From positions 1 to 31,277 of the forward strand of contig CAYHYM010000008.1 in the NCBI GenBank assembly GCA_964360965.1: a stretch of 31,277 bases of DNA, in the 5' to 3' direction. The notes below the pieces were generated by a model. The model saw nothing but the letters and a program-made list of their open reading frames with translations. It searched no databases and was not told where the DNA came from. This document shows, one piece after another, positions 5,017 through 21,133 of the stretch. This stretch comes from an uncultured Gammaproteobacteria bacterium. GTDB lineage: Bacteria; Patescibacteriota; Microgenomatia; Daviesbacterales; UBA10151. Position numbers and translations under genes: made by a program. Numbering within the stretch: position 1 is the first letter of the stretch; each line of letters begins with the position of its first letter.

Positions 5017-5273
5017 AGTAGTAGTCCGTATAAAATAATTAGGGCAAGTAGTACAGTAAGTACATATTCTAGCATAATCTCAAAGCTTAAGCTTTTATCA
5101 AAGAAATGATGGGTTAGGGCAAAGCTTAAATAAAGAACAGAAAGTATGGTTAAAATAACAAATTGCACAAAGGTAAAACCTTGGAATTTTAAAACGGCAG
5201 AAAAAGCTAAAATTGATGATAATAAAATAAAAAAGGGGCTGTATTTTTGTAACTTTAAAATTTTCTTTCTCAT
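5013..5273 (-). CDS. Small hypothetical membrane protein (about 3 TM helices)
   Basis: 86-aa ORF with ATGA overlaps to both neighbours. Strongly hydrophobic, no recognisable domain. Confidence 0.5.
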   Translation of the reverse strand: MRKKILKLQKYSPFFILLSSILAFSAVLKFQGFTFVQFVILTILSVLYLSFALTHHFFDKSLSFEIMLEYVLTVLLALIILYGLLL

Positions 5274-6190
5274 AAAATACTGCCTGGATTAAGAGTTAAA
5301 GTTATAGCTGCGGCTGTTGTTAGAAAGGCAATATGAGCCAAGTGATTGGAATTTAATCTAAATACTCCTCTTTTTTTAAGAACTGCAAAATCTAAAGTCA
5401 AAAGAACAATTACTGCAAAGATAACAAAAACCCCCAATGCCCTGGAAGCCTGAAAGGGATCAATAAAGGGTCTGGCAAAAGAGTTGGCAAGAGACTGCTG
5501 CTCAATGCCGAAAAACTGAGGAGCGCTCTCGTATTCATTCTTTTTTACTGAAAAATTATGTCCATTAATATTTACAGAAGGTAGAGCAGCCAAAGCTGTG
5601 GTGGTACCAAACATCTGCACCACCAAGGTGGTTTTTTGCCCATTGAGCACCCCCTCCACCACAGCCATGCCAATATCCTGATATTTGGGATTTAGGATGT
5701 TGCCTTTATGCGTTGGTGATACCATCCAGGCTTTTACTACCTCGTCATCAGTATAAAAATTTTTAGCCAAGTTTTCTCCTGCAAAAGTAAATCTATAACC
5801 TGCCCCTAAAATAAAATCCCAGGGGGTCTTGCCGGAAGGGGCAAAATGAGCCCAATAATTTTCTGTAAACATATTTTTGGCCTTAGTGTAAGCTGCTTGA
5901 GATAAAGAAGAATTCTCCGAAAGGGTAGGTAAATCGTTTTTTTGCCTTTCCTGATTAGTCAGCTCTATTAAATTTTTTTGTGAAATTTGGGAAGTTATTC
6001 CCAATACTCCAGGTTTAATAAAAGAAACTATGGAAAAGCTAACTTGCAGGATAATAAAAATCAGCACATAACAAAATAGCGCTTCCCAGGAAATCAGGTG
6101 GGCTTTTTTGTGTGTCTCTTTGTGTGGTAAAAACCAATTATGTAACTCCATGATTTCAGTATAGCAGTTCTGTCTCAATTTTCTTGCCAT
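5270..6190 (-). CDS. CAP/SCP (YkwD-like) domain protein with N- and C-terminal TM segments
   Basis: NQERQKNDLPTL..YWAHF..GENLAKNF..AWMVSPTHKGNILNPKYQDIGMAV matches the CAP/SCP-PR1 pattern. An alternative start (MELHNW, ATG at 6151) would remove the overlap with the upstream gene. Confidence 0.75.
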   Translation of the reverse strand: MARKLRQNCYTEIMELHNWFLPHKETHKKAHLISWEALFCYVLIFIILQVSFSIVSFIKPGVLGITSQISQKNLIELTNQERQKNDLPTLSENSSLSQAAYTKAKNMFTENYWAHFAPSGKTPWDFILGAGYRFTFAGENLAKNFYTDDEVVKAWMVSPTHKGNILNPKYQDIGMAVVEGVLNGQKTTLVVQMFGTTTALAALPSVNINGHNFSVKKNEYESAPQFFGIEQQSLANSFARPFIDPFQASRALGVFVIFAVIVLLTLDFAVLKKRGVFRLNSNHLAHIAFLTTAAAITLTLNPGSIL

Positions 6191-6485
6191 TAACAGAAAT
6201 CCCCAAAGAAAACCCTAAAGCATTGGCTACAGATACCCCCACCCTTAACCCTGTAAAAGACCCAGGTCCAGTTTCTATTTCTATACTGTCGATTAGCTTT
6301 CCAATCCCGGATTGGTTTTGAATTGACAATCCGGGATTGTAGGTTCGAAGTAATCTATCTATCAAGGGCAGTAAAACTTGTGAACCATATTTATTCTGCT
6401 CACTCAAACTCTTCATCACCTTCTTCTCCTCCTTCAAGGAAACTGTGACCTGCTTTTGATCTTTGGTATTTATGTATAGAACCAT
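6156..6485 (-). CDS. tsaB: Short TsaB-like protein (N-terminal half only of the t6A TsaB/YeaZ fold)
   Basis: ETGPGSFTGLRVGVSVANALGFSLGI is the conserved TsaB/YeaZ motif. The ORF is only 109 aa against roughly 200+ aa for typical TsaB. Confidence 0.55.
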   Translation of the reverse strand: MVLYINTKDQKQVTVSLKEEKKVMKSLSEQNKYGSQVLLPLIDRLLRTYNPGLSIQNQSGIGKLIDSIEIETGPGSFTGLRVGVSVANALGFSLGISVNGKKIETELLY

Positions 6486-7717: not shown

Positions 7718-8164
7718 ATGGAAGAAGATTTAAAAGAGGAAAAAATAATAAAACCTTTTAAAGAAATTTCCCATTTTGGCAGACTCTTTTTATTCTCCAT
7801 TGTTGCTGCCCTTATTCTGGGCACTCTTACAGGTTATCTTTTGGCAAACAAAGGAGGCCCTTCTTCAAAAGTAGCGCTGCTGAACAATTTAGAAACACCA
7901 AAACATGCTCAACAAGATACCCGTACATTTAGAGATTTTGCCGAAGGGAAAGTTAAGATCAAACCACAACCCAAAGACCCCAATGAATATACAGAAGGCA
8001 CCCATCTTTTGGAAAGATCTGGTGCATATCCTGTAACACTAACCTCCTCAGTGGTGGATTTATCCAAATATGAAGGTAAAAATGTAAAAGTGTTGGGTGA
8101 AACTCAAAAAGCTATCAAAGAAGGATGGCTTATGGATGTTGGCAAAATAGAAGAAGTTAAATGA
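7718..8164 (+). CDS. Hypothetical membrane-anchored protein
   Basis: 148-aa ORF with a single TM (LFLFSIVAALILGTLTGYLLA) and a soluble C-terminal part. Sits directly upstream of ftsE. Confidence 0.5.
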   Translation: MEEDLKEEKIIKPFKEISHFGRLFLFSIVAALILGTLTGYLLANKGGPSSKVALLNNLETPKHAQQDTRTFRDFAEGKVKIKPQPKDPNEYTEGTHLLERSGAYPVTLTSSVVDLSKYEGKNVKVLGETQKAIKEGWLMDVGKIEEVK

Positions 8165-8180: not shown

Positions 8181-8864
8181 ATGCTCATTTTTAACCATGT
8201 CACCAAGAAATTTGGATCAGGTATTATAGCTTTGGATGATATATCAGTGGAAATTAAACAGGGTGAGTTTGTTTTTTTGGTGGGACCATCTGGCGCAGGC
8301 AAATCAACTCTTCTTAAAATTTTAACCCGGGAACTACTTCCAACCTCCGGTAAAGTTACTGTTGAAGGCCAGGATATTACCAAGTTAAAAGCAGGTCAAA
8401 TACCTACCTTCCGCAGAAAAATTGGGGTAGTTTTTCAAGATTTCAAACTGCTTGATGATAGAACGGTTTTTGAAAATGTGGCGTTGACTTTGGAGGTTTT
8501 AGGTAAAAATGAAGTCCAGATTCAAAAAGAGGTTGAACATACTTTAAAATTGGTCAATATCTGGGATCGCCGTAACCTTTTTCCCAGACAACTCTCAGGC
8601 GGAGAGGCTCAACGCACTGTCATTGCCAGGGCTGTAGTGGGAAAACCAAATATAGTTTTGGCAGATGAACCAACAGGAGATTTGGATCAAAAAACAGCTT
8701 GGGGAGTGATACAACTTTTAAATGAAATAAATTCCTGGGGTACAATAGTTTTAATGGCCACTCATAATCAAGAAATTGTCAATACCTTAAAAAAAAGAGT
8801 GATACTTTTAAAAATGGGTAAAATTGCCAAAGACCTAAAAGTAGGTAAATATGAGCTACACTAA
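8181..8864 (+). CDS. ftsE: Cell-division ABC transporter ATP-binding protein FtsE
   Basis: Walker A GPSGAGKST, ABC signature LSGGEAQR and Walker B VLADEPTGDLD. Followed by ftsX with a 14-nt overlap. Confidence 0.9.
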   Translation: MLIFNHVTKKFGSGIIALDDISVEIKQGEFVFLVGPSGAGKSTLLKILTRELLPTSGKVTVEGQDITKLKAGQIPTFRRKIGVVFQDFKLLDDRTVFENVALTLEVLGKNEVQIQKEVEHTLKLVNIWDRRNLFPRQLSGGEAQRTVIARAVVGKPNIVLADEPTGDLDQKTAWGVIQLLNEINSWGTIVLMATHNQEIVNTLKKRVILLKMGKIAKDLKVGKYELH

Positions 8865-9729
8865 TTATTTCAGGTTTACCAAAAGAAATATCCGCCGTTC
8901 CCCTTTTCAAGCTGCCGCCGCAGTGATGATTATGTTTCTGACCTTTTTTGTGCTTTCTACTTTTTTATTACTTGCCATAGGTTCTCAAGAAATACTGCGT
9001 TTTTATGAAAGTAAACCGCAGGTAATTGCCTTTTTTAAAGATACCACCACTAATGAAGACATTATGGCAATAAGCAAAGCATTGGAGAAAGATGCCCGGA
9101 TATTAAAAATAAAATTCGTTTCCAAACAGGAAGCTTTGAATATTTACAGAGAGTCGAATAAAAATGACCCCACGTTGCTGGAACTGGTCACAGCCAATAT
9201 TTTACCGGCATCGCTGGAAATTTCTACCAAAACCCCCCAAGATTTGGCTCCCATAGCAGAAATTTTAAGAATAGAACCCGTTGTTTCTGATGTAATCATT
9301 CCGGAGGATGTGATCCAAACCCTAACATCAGCCACCAGAATAATCCGCTATGTGGGAGGGGCAATTGTGGTATTTTTAATACTTTTTTCAACTCTGGTTA
9401 TTTTGATGGTGATCGGATTTAAAATAAGGCTGCGGCGGGATGAAATTGAAACCATGAGGCTGATTGGGGCATCTTCATCTTTTATCAGATGGCCTTTTAT
9501 CATGGAGGGTATCTTTTACGGATTAACAGGGGCAATAGTTGCCTGGATTGTAGTTTATACTCTGCTTTGGTATTTTACCCCATTCTTGCAAACATATTTG
9601 GGTGAAGTGCAATTTTTACCTGTAAACCCCCTTTTTATGCTGGCACTTCTTACTACCTCTCTTTTGACTGCTATCGTTGTTGGATCTTTAGGATCTTTGG
9701 GAGCAGTTAAAAGATATCTTCATATTTAG
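8851..9729 (+). CDS. ftsX: Cell-division ABC transporter permease-like protein FtsX
   Basis: One TM, then an extracytoplasmic domain, then 3 C-terminal TM helices. Directly follows ftsE. Confidence 0.85.
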   Translation: MSYTNYFRFTKRNIRRSPFQAAAAVMIMFLTFFVLSTFLLLAIGSQEILRFYESKPQVIAFFKDTTTNEDIMAISKALEKDARILKIKFVSKQEALNIYRESNKNDPTLLELVTANILPASLEISTKTPQDLAPIAEILRIEPVVSDVIIPEDVIQTLTSATRIIRYVGGAIVVFLILFSTLVILMVIGFKIRLRRDEIETMRLIGASSSFIRWPFIMEGIFYGLTGAIVAWIVVYTLLWYFTPFLQTYLGEVQFLPVNPLFMLALLTTSLLTAIVVGSLGSLGAVKRYLHI

Positions 9730-9740
9730 GTAAGCTGTGT

Positions 9741-10889
9741 ATGAAACATTTAGTAATCATCCTTTTTTTTGTAAGTATAATCTTTAATCCACTACCCATT
9801 GCTTATGCACAGTCTCAAGATGAATTAGCCAAAAAGTTGGAGGAGAAACAGGCAGAAATTCAAAAACTGGAAACCCACCTTGAAGATGCCAGAAGCAAGT
9901 CTAAAACCCTAAAATCCCAACTGGGAATAATAGATTCTCAAACAAAAATTACAGAACTAAAAATTGAGGAAATCTCCATTAGAATCGAGAAGTTAAAAAG
10001 AGAAATTTTTGAATTATCTACTCGAATTGACCGAATTTCAACCTCAATTGATACATTATCTGAGATTTTATTAAAAAGAATAATCCAGACATATAAATAT
10101 GGGGCTTTGACTACTTTGGATTTAATCTTTTCATCAGATGGGTTTGCTCAAATTTTGGAAAGAACAAAATATATCCAGGTGGCCCAAGCCAATGATAAAA
10201 AAGTACTTTACCAACTCCAAGCCACAAAATCTACTTATAATGATCAAAGACAAGATAAACAAACAAAACAAAATGAAGCCAAAAAATTAAATCAAGACCT
10301 GGAAAATTATAAAAATCAACTAGACCAACAAAAAAAAGATAAAGAGAATCTGTTAGCAATCACCAAAAATGATGAATCCAGATACCAACAGGAAATTGCC
10401 CGTTTACAAGCAGAGCTGGCCTCTATTGCTCAAGCTATTTCTAATGTGGGGCCAAAAATTGGGCCGGTCCAAAAGGGTGAAACCATTGCTGCCATGGGTT
10501 CAACTGGTTGTTCTACTGGCCCGCATTTGCATTATGAGGTTTTTGAAAATGCCAAAATTGAAGGAGGCAGAGTGATTGGGAATAGAGTTGACCCGAATAA
10601 CTATTTGGGTAGCAAACTGGGTTCCCCACTTAATGGATATCCAGGAGGAGATTGGATCATTACTACAGAATATGGTGAGATTTACTTTTTGGGTACCCAT
10701 ACTGGTTTAGATATTGCCCCCAAAGGTGGCGGCGGTTTGGGTAGAGCCATAGTTGCTTCTGAAAAAGGAACAGCATATTCTGTTTCTGCCATCTGTAGCG
10801 TTAATATAGCTGGGGGTTCATCTGTGGGTAAAGGGGTAGTCATTGACCATGAAAATGGATTAGTCACTTTGTATTGGCATATACTGTAA
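9741..10889 (+). CDS. Secreted coiled-coil M23/LytM metallopeptidase (EnvC/PcsB-type FtsEX partner) with reversed order of catalytic motifs
   Basis: Signal peptide (..PIAYA/QS) and a ~200-aa heptad-rich region. GSTGCSTGPHLHYEVF (HxH, 10524-10532) comes BEFORE ITTEYGE..GTHTGLDIA (HxxxD, 10698-10712) and VVIDHENGLVTLYWHIL-stop. Confidence 0.85.
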   Translation: MKHLVIILFFVSIIFNPLPIAYAQSQDELAKKLEEKQAEIQKLETHLEDARSKSKTLKSQLGIIDSQTKITELKIEEISIRIEKLKREIFELSTRIDRISTSIDTLSEILLKRIIQTYKYGALTTLDLIFSSDGFAQILERTKYIQVAQANDKKVLYQLQATKSTYNDQRQDKQTKQNEAKKLNQDLENYKNQLDQQKKDKENLLAITKNDESRYQQEIARLQAELASIAQAISNVGPKIGPVQKGETIAAMGSTGCSTGPHLHYEVFENAKIEGGRVIGNRVDPNNYLGSKLGSPLNGYPGGDWIITTEYGEIYFLGTHTGLDIAPKGGGGLGRAIVASEKGTAYSVSAICSVNIAGGSSVGKGVVIDHENGLVTLYWHIL

Positions 10890-12013
10890 GGGTGACTGCC
10901 CACAGACTCTTAATCTGTATAATTGCTTTTGTTTATTGTCTTTTAAGTGCCTCAACTGTTTTTGCCGGAGATCCACCAACTCTGACAAGTCCTTCAAATA
11001 ATTCTACTGTTACATCTTCTACATTAAATTGGCAAGCTCCCTCATATTCTCTATATTCCACTGATCCTTATAGAGTACAGGTTGATGATGATCCTTCTTT
11101 TCCCAGCGCAACTATCAATAAAGACTACCGTACAAAGAACCCCTACTATAGTCCTGTCTTAAATGAGGGTGTATGGTATTGGAGAGTTAAAGCTAAAGAT
11201 TCTTCTGGTATATGGAGCAATTGGAGTGGTATCTGGTCATTTACATTGCAAACTTCATCTCCAGCAACTCCTACACCAACTCCATCACCCACTCCATCAT
11301 CAACTTCCCCCAGTTCAACGGTAACCTCATCATTTACCGTCTCTGATGTGCCATCACAAATTAATTCTGATCAATCATTTAATGTCTCTGCTAATTTATC
11401 CTTACCAAATAATCCGGATGCTACCTTTTATTTAAAGGGGGCTTTTAAAAAGGCGGATAGCTCCAATTATTTTGGATTAACTAAAGTATCTGGTATTTGG
11501 ATTAAAAATGGCAGCAGTTATTCAGAACAATACCGAATTACTACAAATAGTACTGGTAATTGGTCAGGCAATTTGGAAGTGCAGCCAGACAGTGGGGATT
11601 CTGGTTTTACCGGCAGTGGTGATTATATTTTTAAGGTAGGAAGATATACCTCTTCTGGTTCTGGTCCAACATGGAGCAATGAGGCAACAATAAATTTGAT
11701 AGATGTCAATGGCGAAGGTATCAAAGGGGGTACTGATTTACAAACTGCAACTATAAATAACAATCAACCCCAAAAATCATCTGCAGTTAAAGGGTTGACA
11801 AAAACAAACATTAAAAAAAACTTTCTTGAATCCTCTGCTTCTCCACTGATCAAACAATACACACCTCAAGCTCAACAGTCTACTTCTTCAGTTCAAATAA
11901 AAAATAATAACTCAAAATATCCACTGGTTATTATGGGTAGCATTTTAATAATACTGGGCGCAGGTTCAATTATTTATCTAATTTGGCAGAAAAAATTAAA
12001 ACTTAAACCATGA
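10874..12013 (+). CDS. Secreted FN3-like domain protein with a PT-rich linker and C-terminal TM anchor
   Basis: Signal peptide LLICIIAFVYCLLSASTVFA/GD; the start may be GTG 10892 rather than TTG 10874. W-rich FN3-like segment (WYWRVKAKDSSGIWSNWSGIWSF). Linker SSPATPTPTPSPTPSSTSPSS. Terminal TM LVIMGSILIILGAGSIIYLIW. Confidence 0.7.
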   Translation: MAYTVRVTAHRLLICIIAFVYCLLSASTVFAGDPPTLTSPSNNSTVTSSTLNWQAPSYSLYSTDPYRVQVDDDPSFPSATINKDYRTKNPYYSPVLNEGVWYWRVKAKDSSGIWSNWSGIWSFTLQTSSPATPTPTPSPTPSSTSPSSTVTSSFTVSDVPSQINSDQSFNVSANLSLPNNPDATFYLKGAFKKADSSNYFGLTKVSGIWIKNGSSYSEQYRITTNSTGNWSGNLEVQPDSGDSGFTGSGDYIFKVGRYTSSGSGPTWSNEATINLIDVNGEGIKGGTDLQTATINNNQPQKSSAVKGLTKTNIKKNFLESSASPLIKQYTPQAQQSTSSVQIKNNNSKYPLVIMGSILIILGAGSIIYLIWQKKLKLKP

Positions 12014-12441
12014 AACAATTTAAAACATATAATTTTTACCAAACTCAAAATTTGGCAAAAAAAATGGCCCAACGCCCAAAGGGTAATGTTTATGCTTTGG
12101 TGGGGGAATTGGGTTCTGGTAAAACCACCTTTGCTCAAGGATTTGCCCAAGGTTTGGGGATTAAGGATAAAATCCTCTCTCCCACTTTTATTTTGATTCG
12201 CCAACATCCCATACCAAAATCTTCAAAAACACTTTATCATCTTGATCTTTATAGAATGGATAATACTGAGCAAATCAAACAACTTGGAATTGAAGAGATC
12301 ATTTCAGATCCTGACAACATAGTATTAATAGAGTGGGCTGAAAAAGCCAAAAAGTTCTTACCTCAAAATATTACCTGGATTTTTTTAAAATCGATTGGAC
12401 AGTATATTAGAGAGCTCAAAATAAAGGAAGCTCATTCCTAA
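12010..12441 (+). CDS. tsaE: tRNA t6A37 biosynthesis ATPase TsaE
   Basis: P-loop GELGSGKTTFAQGFAQGLGI, SPTFILI and HLDLYR are TsaE/YjeE signatures. ATGA overlap with the upstream gene. Confidence 0.9.
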   Translation: MKQFKTYNFYQTQNLAKKMAQRPKGNVYALVGELGSGKTTFAQGFAQGLGIKDKILSPTFILIRQHPIPKSSKTLYHLDLYRMDNTEQIKQLGIEEIISDPDNIVLIEWAEKAKKFLPQNITWIFLKSIGQYIRELKIKEAHS

Positions 12442-13936
12442 CTTCTATAGTTAATGGTCCAATGTTTTCTGATTTTAGAAGTTCTAAATTCTTAAATTGA
12501 TTTTCCCAAAGATGCCTAATGCCAGTTTGATCCGGCTCTTTAATTAAAAACACTAACCCCGAGCTTTCTGGTTGGTTCCCCACCTCTAATTTTTCTTTAC
12601 TTGGTACATAAGGTGGTTTATTGGGAGCATAAGCATATTCTTGAGGTAAATATCCATATTTTTTTAGCCCATGCCACCAAAAAAGATATTGATATGGCCA
12701 ATCATAAACTGATGGAAGATAAGTATAAACCTTAAAGTTTTTACCTCCAGCTTGTTGGTAAACATAATCAATAGCTGAAAGTTCTGTTCTTAAATGGGAA
12801 TTGCCTAATGATTTTCTTTGAGCTGCTTTTATGTATTCATGTATATTTTGTACACTAAATACTACTAAAACTAAAACTAAAATAACTGCCACTATTTTAC
12901 CAAAGTGAGTTTTTAGATGATAAAAAACCAAACCAACTGCTAAAATTGAGGCTACTAAAGAAGCATTAAAATACCAAGGCAGAATACCCACTTTAAGAGG
13001 GATTAATCCTAAAAGTGGCACAAAGATAAGTAGCAGAGTAATTAAAGTTACTATATCTAATTTTTTAGTGTTTCTTAATAATTTTAAAACTACCAGGGTA
13101 AAAATTATTATTACTATATTGGTAAATAATTTAAAATTCATGAAGGTTGGTAAAAGTGTGTTATAAAAACCCTTAAAAATATCTGCTGCTTTCTCTATTA
13201 AAGACCCACTAACCATTGAATGAGAAGTGGATTGGTAAGATAGTAGCGCTTTGGTCATGAAAAAGTTATGACGAAGTTCAAACAAAAGTTGTGGCAAAAG
13301 TGTTAATCCAAAAACTAAAACTGCTAGATAAAAAGATCTTGTTTTAAAAAGACTTTTTTTAGTTAGAAAAATAACAAGAACTATAACTAGTGGCATAAAA
13401 AGTCCCACTGTTACCTCAAAGTGTAAAAATGCTCCCGCCAGAAACCAACTTACAGTGGCAAACCACCACTTCCCAGATTCTACAAAACGCCACAAGCAGT
13501 AAATAAAAATAGGTGTTAAAAATAATATGGGATTGGGATTAAAAGCATATTGACTGCCCAAAAGAATAAAATTAGAAGCTACCCAAAAGCAAGTTACTGC
13601 AACATAAGCCCAAGTACCATAAAATTTATATGCTAAATACAATAAGAAAAATCCTCCCAGTATCCAAAATGTTATCTCCATTAAAATTGGGGCATAGGGA
13701 TGACCTCCAGATAAAATAAAAGGTATAGTCAAAAGATAATACCAACCTGGTCCATAATATATTCCATCAATAGAGGTTGTTTGACCGATTAGTCTTAAAT
13801 GACCTAAAACTACCATCTCCCTCACATCTACCATATCTCTGGCGTTGTCCATATTAAAATAAAAATTACCATCAGCGGTGATAAAAAATCTAAATAAAGC
13901 CCCTAAAAATAGTGTCACTAAAATAATTTTTTTCAT
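12416..13936 (-). CDS. GT-C fold membrane glycosyltransferase (GT39/ArnT-like), paralog of the next gene
   Basis: 506 aa, more than 10 TM helices. N-terminal FNMDNARD..LIGQTTSIDGIYYGPGWYYLL aligns by eye with FGFDQARD..LIGPSTSFEGLYHGVLYYYLL of the 511-aa neighbour. The C-terminal soluble domains are also similar. Confidence 0.75.
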   Translation of the reverse strand: MKKIILVTLFLGALFRFFITADGNFYFNMDNARDMVDVREMVVLGHLRLIGQTTSIDGIYYGPGWYYLLTIPFILSGGHPYAPILMEITFWILGGFFLLYLAYKFYGTWAYVAVTCFWVASNFILLGSQYAFNPNPILFLTPIFIYCLWRFVESGKWWFATVSWFLAGAFLHFEVTVGLFMPLVIVLVIFLTKKSLFKTRSFYLAVLVFGLTLLPQLLFELRHNFFMTKALLSYQSTSHSMVSGSLIEKAADIFKGFYNTLLPTFMNFKLFTNIVIIIFTLVVLKLLRNTKKLDIVTLITLLLIFVPLLGLIPLKVGILPWYFNASLVASILAVGLVFYHLKTHFGKIVAVILVLVLVVFSVQNIHEYIKAAQRKSLGNSHLRTELSAIDYVYQQAGGKNFKVYTYLPSVYDWPYQYLFWWHGLKKYGYLPQEYAYAPNKPPYVPSKEKLEVGNQPESSGLVFLIKEPDQTGIRHLWENQFKNLELLKSENIGPLTIEVRNELPLF

Positions 13937-15472
13937 CTAAAATTTTTCTCTTTTCTGAACAACAAACATACCAAATTTTTCTTCCTCAACTATTTTGGTA
14001 AAATAGCCTTCTTCTTTTAAGAAATCATCAATTAAATAAGTGGCAATTCCTCTGGTCGGTTCAATAATAACATACCTTCTACTTGGTAGTTTCTCCTGAG
14101 CCTCTTCAACTTTTAAGTTACCTGCAAAACCTACTGCATTTTTACCATTCCAGATAGGTAAATATCCAAAATTATTTTGTCCATACCATTCAAAAAGATA
14201 ACTCCAAGTGGTATTTATATAAAGAGGCATTGTTACTGCCTTAACGGCAAATGGCTCACTATTAGCATCTTGATAAATATAATCCAAAACTTTTTTCTGA
14301 TCAGACAATAACATGCCCTGCTGAACATTAATCTCTGAAATAGTTCCCTTAGGATTTAGTTTAGTAATCATAGTCAAGTTTGAATATATTATTATGGCTA
14401 CTATTAATAATCCCAGAAAAATATTTTTCTTTATTACTTTTTCTATTATCAAAGATATGAATATTAATAATGCTATAGACACTCCTACATTGGGATAATA
14501 TAATGGGATTTCTTTTTGTAAATTTTCTACTCCTCCATGTACCACCAAAGTCAGTATTAAAGAAAAAAACCAGACACTTAAAAAAATTAGCTGTTTTAAA
14601 TATATTTTTTTAATCAGTAAAATTATATAAATAATAGTAAGCAGTACCAAAACTATTTCTTTATACTGAAAATCTCCCCAGATGTTGTAGCTACCCATTT
14701 TTGAAACAGTAAAAAGGTAAGTTTGAATAATACTATCTAATGTTTTACCAGGATTAAATCCAGATAATGCTACCAGGGAATTTATAGTCCTAAAATTATA
14801 TTTAAATTCTGCCAAAATAAATGATGATAAAGAAATCGTCAGCACCATAATAGAAATTAACCAGATTTTTAAAGGTACCTGAAAGAATCTTTGTCTAAAG
14901 AGCAGAATTATTAAAACAAAGGGTACAGTCAAATAAGTTAAAACAAACTCAGATTGTATTGAAAAACCTAGTCCTAAAAAAGCTAATGGTAATCCCAAGC
15001 AAATGTTTCTAAAAACAACTTTTGCCAGACCTAAATACATTACTAAAATACTAAGAACCCCCAGCGAAGGATGATGTAGATAAATAGAAAATTGAGTCTG
15101 TTCAAAAGAAAAAGCAAAAAGAATAGCAGTAAAAAGGGCAGTTTTTTTATCAAATAATATTTTAGTGATATAAAAAATAAGAAAAATTCCCAAGGAGTTA
15201 AGGATTCTCCAAACCGCTGCCACAAATTCCGTACTTTTATCTCCCAGACCATATAAAGGAGCCAAAAGATAGTAATACAAAACTCCATGATACAATCCCT
15301 CAAAGGAAGTTGAAGGACCAATAAGTTTTAAATCACCATTTAATAAATCTTGTGCAACATAAGCATCTCTGGCTTGATCAAATCCAAAATAAATATTGTT
15401 GGGAAAATAAAGAAAACGGATAACCATTGCTAATAAAAAAATGGCGGGTAGTATTATTTTAGTCTTATTCAT
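13937..15472 (-). CDS. GT-C fold membrane glycosyltransferase (GT39/ArnT-like)
   Basis: 511 aa, polytopic. Its stop abuts the start of the downstream paralog (TAGATG). Carries the FDQARD motif in the first loop. Confidence 0.75.
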   Translation of the reverse strand: MNKTKIILPAIFLLAMVIRFLYFPNNIYFGFDQARDAYVAQDLLNGDLKLIGPSTSFEGLYHGVLYYYLLAPLYGLGDKSTEFVAAVWRILNSLGIFLIFYITKILFDKKTALFTAILFAFSFEQTQFSIYLHHPSLGVLSILVMYLGLAKVVFRNICLGLPLAFLGLGFSIQSEFVLTYLTVPFVLIILLFRQRFFQVPLKIWLISIMVLTISLSSFILAEFKYNFRTINSLVALSGFNPGKTLDSIIQTYLFTVSKMGSYNIWGDFQYKEIVLVLLTIIYIILLIKKIYLKQLIFLSVWFFSLILTLVVHGGVENLQKEIPLYYPNVGVSIALLIFISLIIEKVIKKNIFLGLLIVAIIIYSNLTMITKLNPKGTISEINVQQGMLLSDQKKVLDYIYQDANSEPFAVKAVTMPLYINTTWSYLFEWYGQNNFGYLPIWNGKNAVGFAGNLKVEEAQEKLPSRRYVIIEPTRGIATYLIDDFLKEEGYFTKIVEEEKFGMFVVQKREKF

Positions 15473-17141
15473 GAGTTAAAAGATAAAATGCCACCTCTTT
15501 TGAGGGATATTCAATTATATCAACAACCTTAAGTCCTTTAATTTTTTCAAATCTTAAATCATTTGGGATATCTTTTCTATTGGCTATAAGTAAAGTTTTA
15601 GAATTAAGAAAATCTGAAAGAGTATCATTTTGTAAAATTTTTTGATCAATACTGGCAAAATAGAACTTACCCAGTTTCGGGATATCTTTACCAAAACCCT
15701 CAAGGGTAATTTTATCTAAATTATTTTTTTGGAAAAAAAGGGGGTCGTATTTAGTCCAAAACAAGGCAAATACAAGAGGAGGTTCTGTAGTTGGAGTAAA
15801 AATAAACTTATCATAAGTATCTCCTAAAATCTGGGTTTTAAGAATTGCCTGTTTAAAACCATAGTGCCATAATCTTTCTGATTCTTGAGGATAGTGTACA
15901 TAATATCGGTGTAGATAAAGATAGAAGTTGCCAAGCAGTATTAAAATTATTGAAATAAATATTAGCTTCTTTAGTTTATCTTTTAACCAAAACATCTGAA
16001 ATAAAAAGTAAAAACCCAAAGCGCTTATGATAATCAGAGGTGTTAGCATTAAAAATAATCTTGTGGCATGATCACCCCCTCCAACAGTTAGGGCGGCAGG
16101 TATCGGAGATAAAACCAGCCAAAAAAGAATTAATTTAGCTTGCTTTGGAAAATTATTGAATAAAACCCAGATTCCGAGCAATATTGAAATAACTTCTATA
16201 AAATAAAATTGGCCCATTCCACCCACACTGTGTCTTATGATGTGGTCCCCTTGCAAAAACAAAAAATTTGTAGAAATTGATGTCAGATAATTTTTAGCAA
16301 AAATTTCCGAAAAAGAAAGCAGTTTATTGTGTGAAATTTTAGAAATAGGGTTTGGTACCGGATTATCTATCCCTCTTTTAACATCAACTTCTTGTGGAAT
16401 TGTGGGGTCTGCAAAAATATTGGTATAAGAAAACCTATAACCAGCCTTCCCTTGTATGGTATCTAGCATCAAAGGCGTGGTCATAAAAAATAAAATTAAA
16501 ATTATGGTTAGTTTAAAATTACTGGATAATTTTATAATTTCTTTTCTATAAATTAGAAATAAACCTAAAGTTAATATCGGTACGAAAAGTTTTGCCGTAC
16601 TATAACTGTAAATAGACAAACTAAATAAAATTACAGATATTATAAGTAATTTTTTCTTAACTATTCCTTCCAGGAAAAATACTATCCCCCAAATAATAAG
16701 AGCAAGCATTAGAGTTACCTCAAAGCCTGCTCTTGAATAATGAAGCTGCCAAGGTGAAATAGTAAATAGAAAAGTAGAAATTATTGCTACCCAGTTGTTA
16801 AACTCAAGTTTTTTCACTAGAAAATATAACCCCAAAATTGAAATTATCCCAAAAAAAGCTGACGGTACTCTCACACCCCACTCATTCAAACCAAAAAGTG
16901 CAATTGTAACTGCAGATGAATATATATAAAGTGGAGCCCTAAAATCTGAAAAAGACTCAAAAGAAATCGGTAAAAAATTTCCATTATAATCTTTTCCTGT
17001 TTTTAGTAAGGAGTAGGCTTGATAACCAACATCAACTTCATCAGCAAAAAGACTGGGTGGATTTTGATCTAATAAATAAAACCTCAAAAATATCCCTAAA
17101 AAAATTATTGAGATGAAAAATATTTTTTGTATCTTGGTCAT
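15465..17141 (-). CDS. Glycosyltransferase family 39 (PMT_2 / protein-mannosyltransferase- or ArnT-like)
   Basis: NPPSLFADEVDVGYQAYSLLKTGKDYNGNFLP is the typical first-loop DE motif region of bacterial GT39 proteins. 558 aa, polytopic. Confidence 0.8.
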   Translation of the reverse strand: MTKIQKIFFISIIFLGIFLRFYLLDQNPPSLFADEVDVGYQAYSLLKTGKDYNGNFLPISFESFSDFRAPLYIYSSAVTIALFGLNEWGVRVPSAFFGIISILGLYFLVKKLEFNNWVAIISTFLFTISPWQLHYSRAGFEVTLMLALIIWGIVFFLEGIVKKKLLIISVILFSLSIYSYSTAKLFVPILTLGLFLIYRKEIIKLSSNFKLTIILILFFMTTPLMLDTIQGKAGYRFSYTNIFADPTIPQEVDVKRGIDNPVPNPISKISHNKLLSFSEIFAKNYLTSISTNFLFLQGDHIIRHSVGGMGQFYFIEVISILLGIWVLFNNFPKQAKLILFWLVLSPIPAALTVGGGDHATRLFLMLTPLIIISALGFYFLFQMFWLKDKLKKLIFISIILILLGNFYLYLHRYYVHYPQESERLWHYGFKQAILKTQILGDTYDKFIFTPTTEPPLVFALFWTKYDPLFFQKNNLDKITLEGFGKDIPKLGKFYFASIDQKILQNDTLSDFLNSKTLLIANRKDIPNDLRFEKIKGLKVVDIIEYPSKEVAFYLLTHE

Positions 17142-18463
17142 TTTATCTTTTTTAGTTCCTGTTTAAATATCACTACCAAGTATAAGAAAAAAATGATATT
17201 TAAAACAACTAAAAATTTCTCCACAATATGATTGGATAAAATCCCAACTATAAAGTTCCATCTTGGAAACCACCAAAAATGATAAAGATTTATAAAATGT
17301 ATTAGAGAAAGCGATATAAAAATCCACATATATTTTTTATTTAAGCCCACTAGCGACACTAGAAGTAAAAGTGTTGGGTAAAAATATCTCTCATGCATTC
17401 TTGGTAAGAATAAAAAAGCAGCAAAGGAGATAATGGTAGTCAGAAGAATAACTATTTGATTGTTGTATCTTTTCTGCATTCCTAGAAAAATGCTTAGAGC
17501 CAAAACCGCAAATATAGTATTACCTACTGCATAAACTGGTATTCCCAAGAATAGTGACGTGTCTGGCTTGTTATCAAATCCAAATATCAACGCCCAAAAG
17601 TTAAAGGCATTAGCCACAATATAAGATAATTCTCCTCCCAAACTTCTTTGGTAGAAACTCAAAATCCAAGGTAATAAATTTTGTGGATGAAATGGTAAAT
17701 AAAGCGCTATTGGAAGTAATAAAAAAATTATAACGTTTTTAAGAAGTGTTCGCCCACTTCTTAACCAACCAATGATAAGAATTGGAAAAGCAAAAAACGC
17801 TGTAGGCTTTGTTAAAATAGCCAAAGCATATAAAAATGTAGCAAAAATAAATTTTTTCTGGAAAAGATTTAAAAGAGAGGTCAATATAAAAAATCCGTAG
17901 ATACTATCTGTTTGCCCCCATAAAGCTGAATTATACCAAAATGGTGGTGAGAAAGCAAAGGATAAGGCCGAAACTATACCAGCTTTTCTGTTTTTTAATC
18001 TTTTCCCAATTTGATATAAAAAATAAATAATACCCAGATCAGCAAAAATAGCTGGTAATTTATTAAAAAAGTACCAACCTTTTTCAGATTCCAACCATAG
18101 AATAAAATTAGAGGGGAAAATGGGAATATATATGTTAAGCACCCAAGAAATCTTCAAAATCAATTGATGTAAACCTACTGATAGCCAAAAGATATAAGAA
18201 GTTACTGGAGGATAGGTTGGTCGCATAGCATTATCAATATTACGATCATAGAAACCTAATAATCCTTTTTCCCATAAATCTTTGGCCCACCAATAATAAT
18301 TGACAACATCACCATGTTCGCCCAAAAGGGCAATCGCGATTCTAAGAAGAAAGGCCGTAAAGATAATAGGAAATAATAATTTCACTTTAGACGTTAAAAA
18401 TCCCTTAATTTGGATAATGGCATTTCTTGTATTTCTTTCCAGAACCACAGTAACAGGGATCAT
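17138..18463 (-). CDS. GT-C fold membrane glycosyltransferase (DUF2029/Gpi18-like mannosyltransferase family)
   Basis: 441 aa, polytopic, with the loop GEHGDVVNYYWWAKDLW..YPPVTSY. The ATG at 18463 overlaps the secA 3' end by 59 nt. GTG at 18385 (V/MKLLFPIIFTAF) is a likely alternative start. Confidence 0.7.
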   Translation of the reverse strand: MIPVTVVLERNTRNAIIQIKGFLTSKVKLLFPIIFTAFLLRIAIALLGEHGDVVNYYWWAKDLWEKGLLGFYDRNIDNAMRPTYPPVTSYIFWLSVGLHQLILKISWVLNIYIPIFPSNFILWLESEKGWYFFNKLPAIFADLGIIYFLYQIGKRLKNRKAGIVSALSFAFSPPFWYNSALWGQTDSIYGFFILTSLLNLFQKKFIFATFLYALAILTKPTAFFAFPILIIGWLRSGRTLLKNVIIFLLLPIALYLPFHPQNLLPWILSFYQRSLGGELSYIVANAFNFWALIFGFDNKPDTSLFLGIPVYAVGNTIFAVLALSIFLGMQKRYNNQIVILLTTIISFAAFLFLPRMHERYFYPTLLLLVSLVGLNKKYMWIFISLSLIHFINLYHFWWFPRWNFIVGILSNHIVEKFLVVLNIIFFLYLVVIFKQELKKIK

Positions 18464-21125
18464 TTCTACCTATTTTTTGGTGATGAATTGACCCCCCACT
18501 ATCTAAAACTTCTTGACCTATTACCTGTCCCCCCCTTTCAATAGTTACTTTGGTTTCCCCTTCTTGAGATTCTATCGGTCGCTGTGCTCCCTCCAGAATG
18601 ACAGGAGAAACCTGTGGACGGATTTCCACTCCTTGCGGCATATTCCCCATCTGAACTCTAGCCTGACCCTGCATTGCCACCTTAAAAATTCTATGAACAA
18701 TCTCAAAATCAATCTCCATCATCATTTTTTCAAATAAATCAAAAGCTTCTCTTTTATATTCAATCAAAGGATCTCTTCCAGCATAACCACGCAGCCCAAT
18801 TCCTGCTCTCAGATCATCCATGGTGTCTAAATGCTGGGTCCATAAAATATCCATGGTATCCAGGCAAACAATTACTTCCCAGTCTCTGGCATTATCTTGA
18901 CCAATCCTTTCCTCCAGCTGATAATATGCTTCTTTTGAAAGAGAAGTTAAAAACTCAATTACCTGATCCGTATTTTGATAACTTTTGACTTGCTTCTCAA
19001 TTTTGTCCCGGGTACTCCCGTCAATTAGCACAATGGTGGTAAATTCCTCAACTATTTTTTTAGTATCTACTCCCACCTCAACTTTTGAAAGAATAATATT
19101 GTTAATCTCTTTTTCAACTTTGTCTAAAATTTCTTTTTTTAAAGTATCATCTTTAAATTGCGCAGCTTTTAACACCTGTACTCTTGCATCATAAATAATC
19201 TGGCGCTGCTGATTCATCACATCATCATATTCAACAGTATGCTTTCTGATATCAAAATTGTGACCCTCTACCTTTTTTTGGGCACCTTCTATGGCTTTTG
19301 AAACCATGGAATGCTCAATGGGAACATCCTCGGGCATTTTAAGAAAATCCATTACCTTAGAAACTTGCTCGCCGCCAAATATTCTCATCAGGTCATCTTC
19401 CAAAGAAACAAAAAAATGGCTGGTACCGGCATCACCTTGTCTGCCTGATCTGCCCCGCAACTGGTTATCAATTCTTCTTGATTCATGCCTCTCAGTGCCA
19501 ATAACATAAAGCCCGCCCAGCTCTAAAGTCCCTTTGCCAAGTTTGATATCAACACCTCTTCCGGCCATATTGGTGGCCACAGTCACCACCCCTCTCTCTC
19601 CTGCACGTGATATAATTTCTGCCTCCTTCTCGTGATTTTTGGCATTTAAAAGCGCATGAGGAATACCCTTTCTTTTAATAAGCTCTGATAAAAATTCATT
19701 TTTCTCAATAGAGGTGGTTCCAACCAAAACAGGCTGCCCTTTTTGGTGAAGATCTGATACCAGTTCTGCCACTGCTGAATATTTAGCCGTTTGGCTTTTA
19801 TATATTGCATCCGGTAAATCTTCTCTTATCATCTGCCTGTGGGTTAGAATAATCACCACATCAAGTTTATAAATTTTATGGAATTCTTCAGCTTCTGTGG
19901 CAGCAGTACCGGTCATGCCGGCAAGTTTTTGATACATTCTGAAATAATTTTGAAAAGAGATCGTAGCCAGGGTTTTTGACTCCTGTTGAATTTGGACATT
20001 TTCTTTTGCCTCGATTGCCTGATGCAAACCCTCGCTGTAGCGGCGACCAAGCATCAGTCTTCCTGTAAACTCATCCACAATTATCACCTCTCCCTCTTTT
20101 ACCACATAATCTCTGTCTTTTTGGAATAACGTTTTGGCCTTTAAAGCTTGTTCCAAATGATGCAGAGTGGAAAAATCTTTTTCATAAAGATTTTCAACCC
20201 CTAAAATTTTTTCAATTTTTAAAACGCCATGTTCTGTTAAATTGGCGCTTTTTAGCTTTTCATCAACCACATAATCTGTATCAGCTGACAGGTTATCAAC
20301 CAGTTTGGCAAACTGATAATATTTTTCTGTGGGTTCCTCAGCAGGAGCAGAAATTATCAGTGGGGTCCTTGCTTCATCTATTAAAATGGAATCAACCTCA
20401 TCAACAACAGCGAAAAAATGCCCTCCTTGACCATCCGGCCCGCTCCGCCGCGAGGCGAGCAGCCGGGTCTGCACCTGATCAGAAAGCCTATGTACCATAT
20501 TATCCCGCAAATAATCAAAACCAAACTCATTGTTAGTTCCATAAGTAATATCTGCCTCATAAGCCTGCCGGCGGGTGATGGGACGTAAATGTTGCAGTCT
20601 TTTATCATCATGAACAGTCTCTTTATATTTTGGATCATAAAGATAAGCTTCCTCATGAACAATGGTGGCACAACTTGCTCCCAGAGCATGATAGATTGGC
20701 CCCATCCAGCCGCAATCACGCCTGGCCAAATAATCATTGACAGTAATCAGATGCACTCCTTTTCCTGCTATGGCATTTAAAAAAAGAGTGGGGGCGGCAG
20801 ATAAAGTTTTACCCTCTCCTGTTTTTTGTTCGGCAATTTTACCCTGATGCAAAACTGCTGCCGCCAAAAGTTGAACATCAAAGTGACGCTCGCCAATTGT
20901 TCTTTTGGCTGCCTCACGAACAGTGGCAAAAACTTCCGGTAAAAGATCATCTAAACTTTTCCCTTTTTCATATTCTTTCTTAAAAAGGGAAAATTTATCT
21001 TTAAGTTGAACGGTTGTTAGTTTTGAGATTTTTTTTTCCAAACCATTGATTACCTCAATCAAAGGTTTAAGTTTATTTATTTCTCTTTCGTTTGAATCAA
21101 GAAGTTTCCCCAAAAAATCTAACAT
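18405..21125 (-). CDS. secA: Preprotein translocase ATPase SecA
   Basis: MLDFLGKLLDSNEREI.., Walker A QKTGEGKTL, DEAD-like VDEVDSILIDEARTPLIIS and the C-terminal zinc finger CYCGSGKKYKKCH. I use the ATG at 21125, not the track TTG at 21131. Confidence 0.95.
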   Translation of the reverse strand: MLDFLGKLLDSNEREINKLKPLIEVINGLEKKISKLTTVQLKDKFSLFKKEYEKGKSLDDLLPEVFATVREAAKRTIGERHFDVQLLAAAVLHQGKIAEQKTGEGKTLSAAPTLFLNAIAGKGVHLITVNDYLARRDCGWMGPIYHALGASCATIVHEEAYLYDPKYKETVHDDKRLQHLRPITRRQAYEADITYGTNNEFGFDYLRDNMVHRLSDQVQTRLLASRRSGPDGQGGHFFAVVDEVDSILIDEARTPLIISAPAEEPTEKYYQFAKLVDNLSADTDYVVDEKLKSANLTEHGVLKIEKILGVENLYEKDFSTLHHLEQALKAKTLFQKDRDYVVKEGEVIIVDEFTGRLMLGRRYSEGLHQAIEAKENVQIQQESKTLATISFQNYFRMYQKLAGMTGTAATEAEEFHKIYKLDVVIILTHRQMIREDLPDAIYKSQTAKYSAVAELVSDLHQKGQPVLVGTTSIEKNEFLSELIKRKGIPHALLNAKNHEKEAEIISRAGERGVVTVATNMAGRGVDIKLGKGTLELGGLYVIGTERHESRRIDNQLRGRSGRQGDAGTSHFFVSLEDDLMRIFGGEQVSKVMDFLKMPEDVPIEHSMVSKAIEGAQKKVEGHNFDIRKHTVEYDDVMNQQRQIIYDARVQVLKAAQFKDDTLKKEILDKVEKEINNIILSKVEVGVDTKKIVEEFTTIVLIDGSTRDKIEKQVKSYQNTDQVIEFLTSLSKEAYYQLEERIGQDNARDWEVIVCLDTMDILWTQHLDTMDDLRAGIGLRGYAGRDPLIEYKREAFDLFEKMMMEIDFEIVHRIFKVAMQGQARVQMGNMPQGVEIRPQVSPVILEGAQRPIESQEGETKVTIERGGQVIGQEVLDSGGSIHHQKIGRNDPCYCGSGKKYKKCHYPN
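20435..20467. repeat. GC-rich imperfect palindrome embedded in-frame in secA
   Basis: ccggcccgctccgccgcgaggcgagcagccggg has 29 of 33 bases G/C in an AT-rich gene. Arms ccggc/gccgg, gct/agc and cgcc/ggcg surround a gcga loop. Confidence 0.6.
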
Positions 21126-21133
21126 GTTCAATA

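Follow-up and report, generated by a model that had tools for sequence, protein, structure and literature searches.

Locus and protein layout

We analysed a 31,277-nucleotide stretch of DNA (the window: positions 1 to 31,277 of contig CAYHYM010000008.1, assembly GCA_964360965.1) from an ultra-small bacterium of the candidate phyla radiation (CPR). A gene at 9741-10889, directly behind the cell division genes ftsE and ftsX, encodes a secreted protein of 382 amino acids with a long coiled coil and a C-terminal metallopeptidase domain of the M23 (LytM) type. The two halves of this domain appear in the reverse of their usual order: the C-terminal half (hairpins, GSTG, HxH, DP) comes first, followed by a short junction and then by the N-terminal half (Tyr, HxxxD, YxH). 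The gene has the following features, with the evidence for each in brackets.

9741-10889, plus strand: whole gene, 382 amino acids, for a secreted coiled-coil protein that resembles EnvC and carries a circularly permuted M23 domain (open reading frame, Pfam, phmmer, de-permutation, family profile)
9741-9809, plus strand: predicted Sec signal peptide, residues 1-23, MKHLVIILFFVSIIFNPLPIAYA/Q (read by eye: a hydrophobic core, then AYA-Q)
9810-10439, plus strand: coiled-coil domain, residues 24-233, running colinear to the coiled coil of EnvC plus the first half of the EnvC restraining arm (family profile against EnvC)
10059-10208, plus strand: best-conserved stretch of the coiled coil, residues 107-156, aligned with both FtsX-binding interfaces of EnvC (107-sequence alignment; EnvC alignment)
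10440-10604, plus strand: M23 C-terminal half, placed first, residues 234-288, with beta-hairpins, GSTGxSTGPHLH and VDPxxY (Pfam M23 positions 63-91; C-terminal halves in the PDB)
10524-10532, plus strand: HxH, H262-L-H264 (sequence)
10605-10628, plus strand: junction loop LGSKLGSP, residues 289-296, between the ancestral C- and N-termini (spacing variation; lower model confidence)
10629-10886, plus strand: M23 N-terminal half, placed last, residues 297-382, with Y315, HxxxD and YxH (Pfam M23 positions 2-52; N-terminal halves in the PDB)
10698-10712, plus strand: HxxxD, H320-T-G-L-D324 (sequence)
10878-10880, plus strand: histidine of YxH, H380 in YWH (two codons ahead of the stop at 10887-10889)

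Swapped halves of the M23 domain

The Pfam profile Peptidase_M23 (PF01551) matches the native protein with 51.2 bits, against a gathering score of 28.7, and does so in two stretches. The better one, residues 242-271, corresponds to profile positions 62-91 of 96, placing the end of the model early in the domain, and a later segment corresponds to positions 2-52. Tested singly, the N-terminal half covered profile positions 2-52 and the C-terminal half positions 63-91. The sequence was then de-permuted in silico by cutting it at the junction and exchanging the halves. Rescored with the same profile, it gave a single colinear match to positions 2-91 of 96 (63.5 bits, E=2e-17); the native order scored 55.2 bits in this comparison, split over two pieces.

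Searches of all PDB chains with phmmer, using the last 169 residues as the query, gave the same picture. In canonical M23 domains, query residues 29-79 (VQKGETIAAMGSTGCSTGPHLHYEV...DPNNYL) paired with the C-terminal part and residues 77-168 (...TEYGEIYFLGTHTGLDIA...VIDHENGLVTLYWHI) with the N-terminal part. In phage Gp16 (9m7n), for example, the C-terminal half of the query corresponded to residues 870-913 and the N-terminal half to residues 776-860. Every M23 structure in the PDB matched a full-length profile of the family as two swapped pieces, and no chain among those searched matched it colinearly, so that no permuted M23 domain appears to have been solved.

The closest view of the rearrangement came from P0156 (MDP2703615.1), one of the canonical coiled-coil M23 proteins of other uncultured bacteria. 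It shares the overall architecture and a colinear coiled coil but has the canonical order, whereas here the final ∼55 residues stand ahead of the N-terminal half, between it and the coiled coil. Aligned natively, this C-terminal half is an insertion that matches separately at the end of P0156. The de-permuted domain aligned with P0156 end to end in one BLASTP alignment (32% identity over 155 columns, E=3e-18), ungapped across the artificial joint (WHIL/SNVGPKIGPV versus AHLSRQVVSVGQNV).

Each M23 motif is present once, and the two segments sum to exactly one domain, with nothing duplicated and nothing missing; no internal DNA repeat was found within the gene. By these matches, the arrangement is a clean circular permutation and not a pair of partial domains. 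The original prediction, made from the nucleotide sequence, had proposed a C-terminal half ahead of the N-terminal half in a single domain instead of two separate or degenerate ones, with HxH at 10524-10532. Re-reading the sequence returned the motif at that position, and the Pfam and PDB searches bore out the swapped order: neither Pfam, phmmer nor the family profile gave a colinear M23 match for the native protein.

Catalytic residues and the break point

The zinc ligands, catalytic histidines and H(x)nD and HxH motifs of M23 peptidases were defined in a 2022 review of the family (PMC9662197). Exactly these positions, H262, H264, H320, D324 and H380, were invariant in alignments of 75, 62 and 107 diverse members of the permuted family. 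Y315, five residues before HxxxD, was invariant among close homologues and corresponds to the oxyanion-stabilising Tyr204 of LytM. H380 is the counterpart of LytM His260, but lies 116 residues after HxH, whereas in canonical proteins this histidine lies about 30 residues before it. The protein thus carries H(x)nD, HxH and the additional catalytic histidine of the family, together with a profile score above threshold, but in the linear order HxH...HxxxD...YxH instead of HxxxD...YxH...HxH. By motif and profile, it is homologous to the M23 superfamily, with a permuted topology.

The break lies in the loop right after the YxH histidine, and the domain starts with the hairpins that canonically follow this residue. 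Of 200 family members, 195 have exactly two residues beyond the YxH histidine, giving tails such as YWHIP, YWHIL, YWHLQ and YLHLQ. The spacing from HxH to HxxxD ranges from 50 to 87 residues among 203 members; this variation is concentrated in the junction, which shrinks to about 6-8 residues in the shortest cases. Two further expectations from the first reading of the locus, that all of HxxxD, the YxH histidine and HxH are retained and that the protein stops where a canonical domain would continue into its GSTG segment, therefore hold across the family.

Predicted structure

An AlphaFold2 model built from a 10-sequence alignment was discarded for its low mean predicted local distance difference test score (pLDDT, 64.8); its Foldseek matches in the PDB were junk such as GFP. 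With 107 non-redundant family members, residues 226-382 were predicted as one compact domain (mean pLDDT 93.2, predicted template modelling score (pTM) 0.90), in which a short N-terminal helix precedes ten beta-strands whose order corresponds to that of a de-permuted M23 domain. The junction block had a somewhat lower pLDDT of 86. This confident model and the sequence profiles together suggest that the domain is equivalent in three dimensions to canonical M23.

A Foldseek search of the confident model against the PDB returned nothing significant, probably because sequential 3Di alignment copes badly with circular permutations. A recent paper on circular permutation likewise describes tools of this type as limited in recovering permuted relatives (PMC13552848). 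Searched against BFVD, the model gave modest matches to long cyanophage virion proteins over ∼150-160 columns (TMq 0.45-0.54), the best being A0A510E7V3, the Synechococcus phage P60 internal virion protein and S-TIM5. In phage genomes, tblastn found matches to the canonical C-terminal half only, and no permuted copy.

Family distribution

The permuted order is not peculiar to this contig. It is shared, together with the ...TLYWHI(L/P) end, by nine close homologues (56-76% identity) that come from unrelated assemblies. When one genome per species was scanned, the full-length permuted domain turned up at 43 loci in metagenome-assembled genomes (MAGs), whose titles include Candidatus Daviesbacteria, Curtissbacteria, Levybacteria and ‘Patescibacteria group’. 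An exhaustive HMMER search over 1.84 billion cluster representatives (50% identity) yielded 357 clusters at E<1e-10, with HxH before HxxxD in 109 of the 163 top sequences. Against a 90%-identity collection, two family profiles retrieved 1,786 and 1,298 proteins at the same threshold, and more than 1,700 of the 90%-identity clusters have the permuted order. In public databases the proteins stand under generic M23 names; the matches carry names such as ‘peptidoglycan DD-metalloendopeptidase family protein’ in Daviesbacteria, Levybacteria and Gottesmanbacteria, or, as a JGI label, ‘peptidoglycan hydrolase CwlO-like protein’. A divergent member occurs in Katanobacteria/WWE3 (UniRef100_A0A2M8G5U5, ‘M23ase beta-sheet core domain-containing protein’); for divergent members, the cluster entries gave an organism name in few cases. 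Across many Microgenomates-type CPR MAGs, both the permuted order and the gene cluster prfB-ftsE-ftsX-permuted M23 are conserved.

Some of the related loci have peculiarities of their own. In a Logan-assembled relative (L001, 5394-6603), the permuted-M23 gene is split into open reading frames of 182 and 200 amino acids by a frame break near 5942-6001, which is either a sequencing or assembly error or the mark of a pseudogene; synteny is otherwise identical. In an ENA contig with a coverage of 0.52 (L003, 5970-6464, protein P0006), HxxxD is altered to HTDRYG and the usual C-terminal stop is read through; these are probably sequencing errors and not a real variant. Loci L004, L005, L007, L011 and many others come from ‘binchicken’ MAGs titled ‘uncultured Gammaproteobacteria bacterium’, with 50-78% protein identity to the window. 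On MAGs with a CPR-type locus, this label looks wrong or like a placeholder.

FtsEX neighbourhood and the coiled coil

The two genes upstream were identified by Pfam as the components of the FtsEX division complex.

8181-8864, plus strand: ftsE, the ABC ATPase (ABC_tran, E=4.8e-38)
8851-9729, plus strand: ftsX, the membrane subunit with an extracellular domain (FtsX_ECD at residues 57-148, E=1.5e-16; FtsX permease domain, E=2.1e-14)

The permuted-M23 gene begins 12 nucleotides past ftsX. The order prfB, an open reading frame of 148 amino acids, ftsE, ftsX and the permuted-M23 gene, often followed shortly by tsaE, is found in 41 of 46 family loci; the other five are truncated contigs. ftsX lies immediately upstream of the permuted-M23 gene in the same proportion (41/46), and an ftsE match lies directly 5′ of ftsX in 40 related loci. 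The placement of the gene after ftsE-ftsX and behind a long coiled coil, both part of the original prediction, is thereby secured by Pfam and synteny for the former and by the family profile, which finds the coiled coil EnvC-like, for the latter.

Among PDB chains, the full-length family profile matches E. coli EnvC best (8hd0_E, E=3e-23). Profile positions 22-240 correspond to EnvC 28-245 (domain E=6.8e-16), after which the two LytM halves match in swapped order. In EnvC, the coiled coil spans residues 35-221, the restraining arm 222-278 and the LytM domain 278-419, and FtsX is bound at 114-128 and 141-160 (PMC7668044). The conserved coiled-coil stretch of the permuted family, in which R, Y, Y, Q and D columns are nearly invariant across the 107-sequence alignment, aligns to EnvC ∼114-160. 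Of the restraining arm, the first half aligns with the final helix ahead of the permuted domain (residues ∼205-233); neither the second half of the arm nor the linker into the LytM N-terminus has a counterpart here. Pfam CC_PcsB is also precomputed on many homologues of the protein. The protein thus combines genetic linkage to ftsE-ftsX with a coiled coil homologous to an FtsX-binding one, although the profile match of the latter is compositionally biased and single-sequence matches are sub-threshold.

Two neighbours within this cluster may be noted. The 148-amino-acid open reading frame between prfB and ftsE (7718-8164, plus strand) has an N-terminal hydrophobic segment and no Pfam match; tblastn found it at the same position in 39 of 47 loci, and it is perhaps a so far overlooked part of the division cluster. 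Directly downstream of the M23 gene lies a Ser/Thr/Pro-rich protein of 379 amino acids (10874-12013, plus strand), with a signal-like segment at its N-terminus and a hydrophobic anchor at its C-terminus. The TTG listed as its start falls inside the M23 gene, so that the two overlap by 16 nucleotides. The one match of this protein, to DUF4962, is weak (21.9 bits) and below the cut-off; a homologue lies downstream in 19 loci.

Proposed function

We consider it likely that the gene encodes an FtsEX-controlled EnvC-family protein with a catalytically intact, circularly permuted M23 (LytM-type) zinc endopeptidase. By homology it is a member of the M23 superfamily, and by architecture an FtsEX partner of the EnvC class. 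The extracellular domain of FtsX would be the docking site of the coiled coil. As FtsE binds and hydrolyses ATP, a conformational change would be passed on through the coiled coil and switch the hydrolase on at the septum, where it would cut peptide cross-links of peptidoglycan. In the active site, H320, D324 and H264 would bind Zn2+, H262 and H380 would activate water, and Y315 would stabilise the oxyanion. The helix that matches the first half of the EnvC restraining arm is predicted to run straight into the strand that canonically follows the YxH histidine. Because the new N-terminus of the domain spatially continues the strand after H380, this regulatory helix would be tethered beside the active site and, more speculatively, could gate it more directly than in EnvC.

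The nearest described relatives frame this proposal. EnvC, the FtsEX-bound activator of murein hydrolases in E. coli, P. aeruginosa and V. cholerae, likewise has a signal peptide, a long antiparallel-type coiled coil (colinear here, including the FtsX-binding stretches), a C-terminal LytM/M23 domain and FtsEX as its partner. It differs in having the canonical order, in having lost its catalytic residues and in activating amidases; here the halves are swapped and the residues are intact. EnvC also has a full 57-residue restraining arm (222-278), whereas only its first half aligns here and the chain enters the domain elsewhere. The active M23 endopeptidases LytM, lysostaphin and ShyA/MepM share HxxxD, YxH, HxH, the oxyanion tyrosine and a Pfam M23 score above gathering, but all solved M23 structures read HxxxD...YxH...HxH, and this protein reads HxH...HxxxD...YxH-end. 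PcsB of S. pneumoniae, CwlO of B. subtilis and RipC of M. tuberculosis, the FtsEX-controlled hydrolases of monoderm bacteria, resemble it in placing an active catalytic domain after a coiled coil and in being tied to ftsEX by gene or function, and the permuted family carries CC_PcsB matches and the ‘CwlO-like’ label. Their catalytic domains, however, are CHAP or NlpC/P60 cysteine peptidases and not M23 metallopeptidases. CPR bacteria are thought to possess a monoderm-type envelope, to which an active hydrolase, as in PcsB, CwlO and RipC, is better suited than an amidase activator.

Alternative readings

Several points weigh against the proposal. The EnvC match of the coiled coil is strongly composition-biased (29.5 of 61 bits), the NCBIfam EnvC model matches residues 31-233 below its cut-off (E=3.2e-8), and CC_PcsB reaches 21.2 bits on the 382-amino-acid protein, under its gathering threshold. 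Gene adjacency and coiled-coil similarity suggest the FtsEX link, and residue conservation suggests that the enzyme is active. The original prediction of an active, permuted domain unlike the degenerate one of EnvC is therefore upheld for the permutation and for the invariant residues; for activity, it stands as far as conservation can speak. Last, an evolutionary intermediate with a coiled coil, a C-terminal half and a full M23 domain was not found among family members; apparent C-N-C intermediates were regular-expression artefacts on C-terminal tails such as YWHVR.

That the permuted domain is non-cutting and, like EnvC, binds and activates a separate amidase is unlikely in our view. EnvC is the closest solved relative by profile, and JGI calls one divergent cluster ‘septal ring factor EnvC (AmiA/AmiB activator)’. 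EnvC-type activators, however, have lost their catalytic residues (PMC7668044), whereas all five are invariant here over 62-107 diverse sequences, which indicates selection for catalysis. The permuted domain lacks the degeneracy that defines EnvC-type LytM factors and so should not be filed among them; NCBI, too, names members DD-metalloendopeptidase family proteins. In a stronger version of the preferred reading, for which we see perhaps a minor chance, the permutation is an adaptive rewiring of FtsEX-EnvC mechanotransmission. By fusing the helix that matches the restraining arm to the strand beside the YxH histidine, and by closing the chain two residues beyond this histidine, these CPR bacteria would have gained a self-contained septal hydrolase that needs no amidase, with coiled-coil movement gating the active site directly. 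If true, such gating would be a mode of control absent from all characterised FtsEX systems.

Other alternatives concern the integrity of the domain. PcsB and similar coiled-coil hydrolases dimerise, with interactions between the catalytic domains of different chains, and halves from two chains of a dimer could assemble canonical-like domains by swapping. We regard this as improbable, given that AlphaFold2 predicts a confident, compact monomer, that the old termini are neatly bridged by a junction that can be down to about 6-8 residues long, and that the break point is conserved as exactly as expected of an intramolecular permutation. There is very little to recommend remnants of two partly degenerate M23 domains, whether in a pseudogene or in a tandem pair under decay. 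Proteins with tandem M23-M23 domains do exist, and the permuted profile matches them across the junction, but here every motif occurs exactly once, the pieces make up one complete domain, and order, ends and catalytic residues are conserved in >1,000 clusters. Least credible of all is that the assembly is at fault and that this contig holds a tandem duplication which was collapsed or mis-joined. The same order and stop position recur in 43 independently assembled MAGs and in many metagenomes, and synteny is kept on both flanks. Relatives carry the permuted order at the same locus, with no canonical gene there, as the first reading had implied they should; together with the repeat-free gene, this agreement of independent assemblies rules out both mis-assembly and a recent duplication.

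Origin

A duplication that gave tandem M23-M23 domains, followed by loss of the first N-terminal half and the last C-terminal half, would most simply have produced the permuted order once, in an ancestor of these lineages. In natural tandem M23-M23 proteins, many of which carry the pair behind a BlaR1/M56-like membrane region, the permuted profile matches without a break from one domain into the next, which illustrates this route of duplication and later truncation. That the break point is identical and the EnvC-like coiled coil shared speaks for a single event.

There are precedents for permuted domains. Circularly permuted NlpC/P60 families (YaeF/poxvirus G6R and LRAT-like) have a swapped order of catalytic residues in a cell-wall peptidase domain (PMC6403190), so that natural permutation of such a domain is not without example; fold and catalytic mechanism differ, and there is no link to FtsEX. 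Hybrid barrel-sandwich domains in general also show permuted topologies (PMC11515920). A permuted M23 or LytM domain is not mentioned in a dedicated M23 review (PMC9662197), and none was found described in the literature searched, which left most subscription journals outside its coverage; the original prediction had known of none either.

Implications

Few cell-wall hydrolases have been studied as much as the M23 peptidases, which include lysostaphin, LytM, EnvC and NlpD and some of which are antimicrobial leads. To our knowledge, every described member shares one motif order. A natural, ancient and widely conserved permutation suggests that the M23 fold tolerates new termini beside its active site, which could be useful for engineering, for example in sensor or fusion designs. 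It also shows how order-dependent tools, such as Pfam domain calls and Foldseek, may mis-describe or miss a permuted family. In another vein, the family offers a natural experiment on signal transfer from FtsEX via a coiled coil to a catalytic domain, as the point of connection is no longer at the N-terminal edge of the domain but at the strand that comes after a catalytic histidine. The protein is likely the main septal hydrolase for a large part of the CPR, where cell division is almost unstudied.

Other genes in the window

Two further regions of the window deserve mention. Four consecutive genes for large membrane proteins (506, 511, 558 and 441 amino acids) lie at 12416-18463 on the minus strand, followed by secA (18405-21131). 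Two of the four match PMT_2, a dolichyl-phosphate-mannose-type glycosyltransferase family, and the four look like a run of possibly paralogous glycosyltransferases. At 5270-6485, also on the minus strand, a CAP/SCP-domain protein of 306 amino acids that has a membrane segment at its C-terminus overlaps the end of a short open reading frame of 109 amino acids. The counterpart of the latter in L001 matches Pfam TsaD, making it TsaB-like, although it is unusually short for TsaB.

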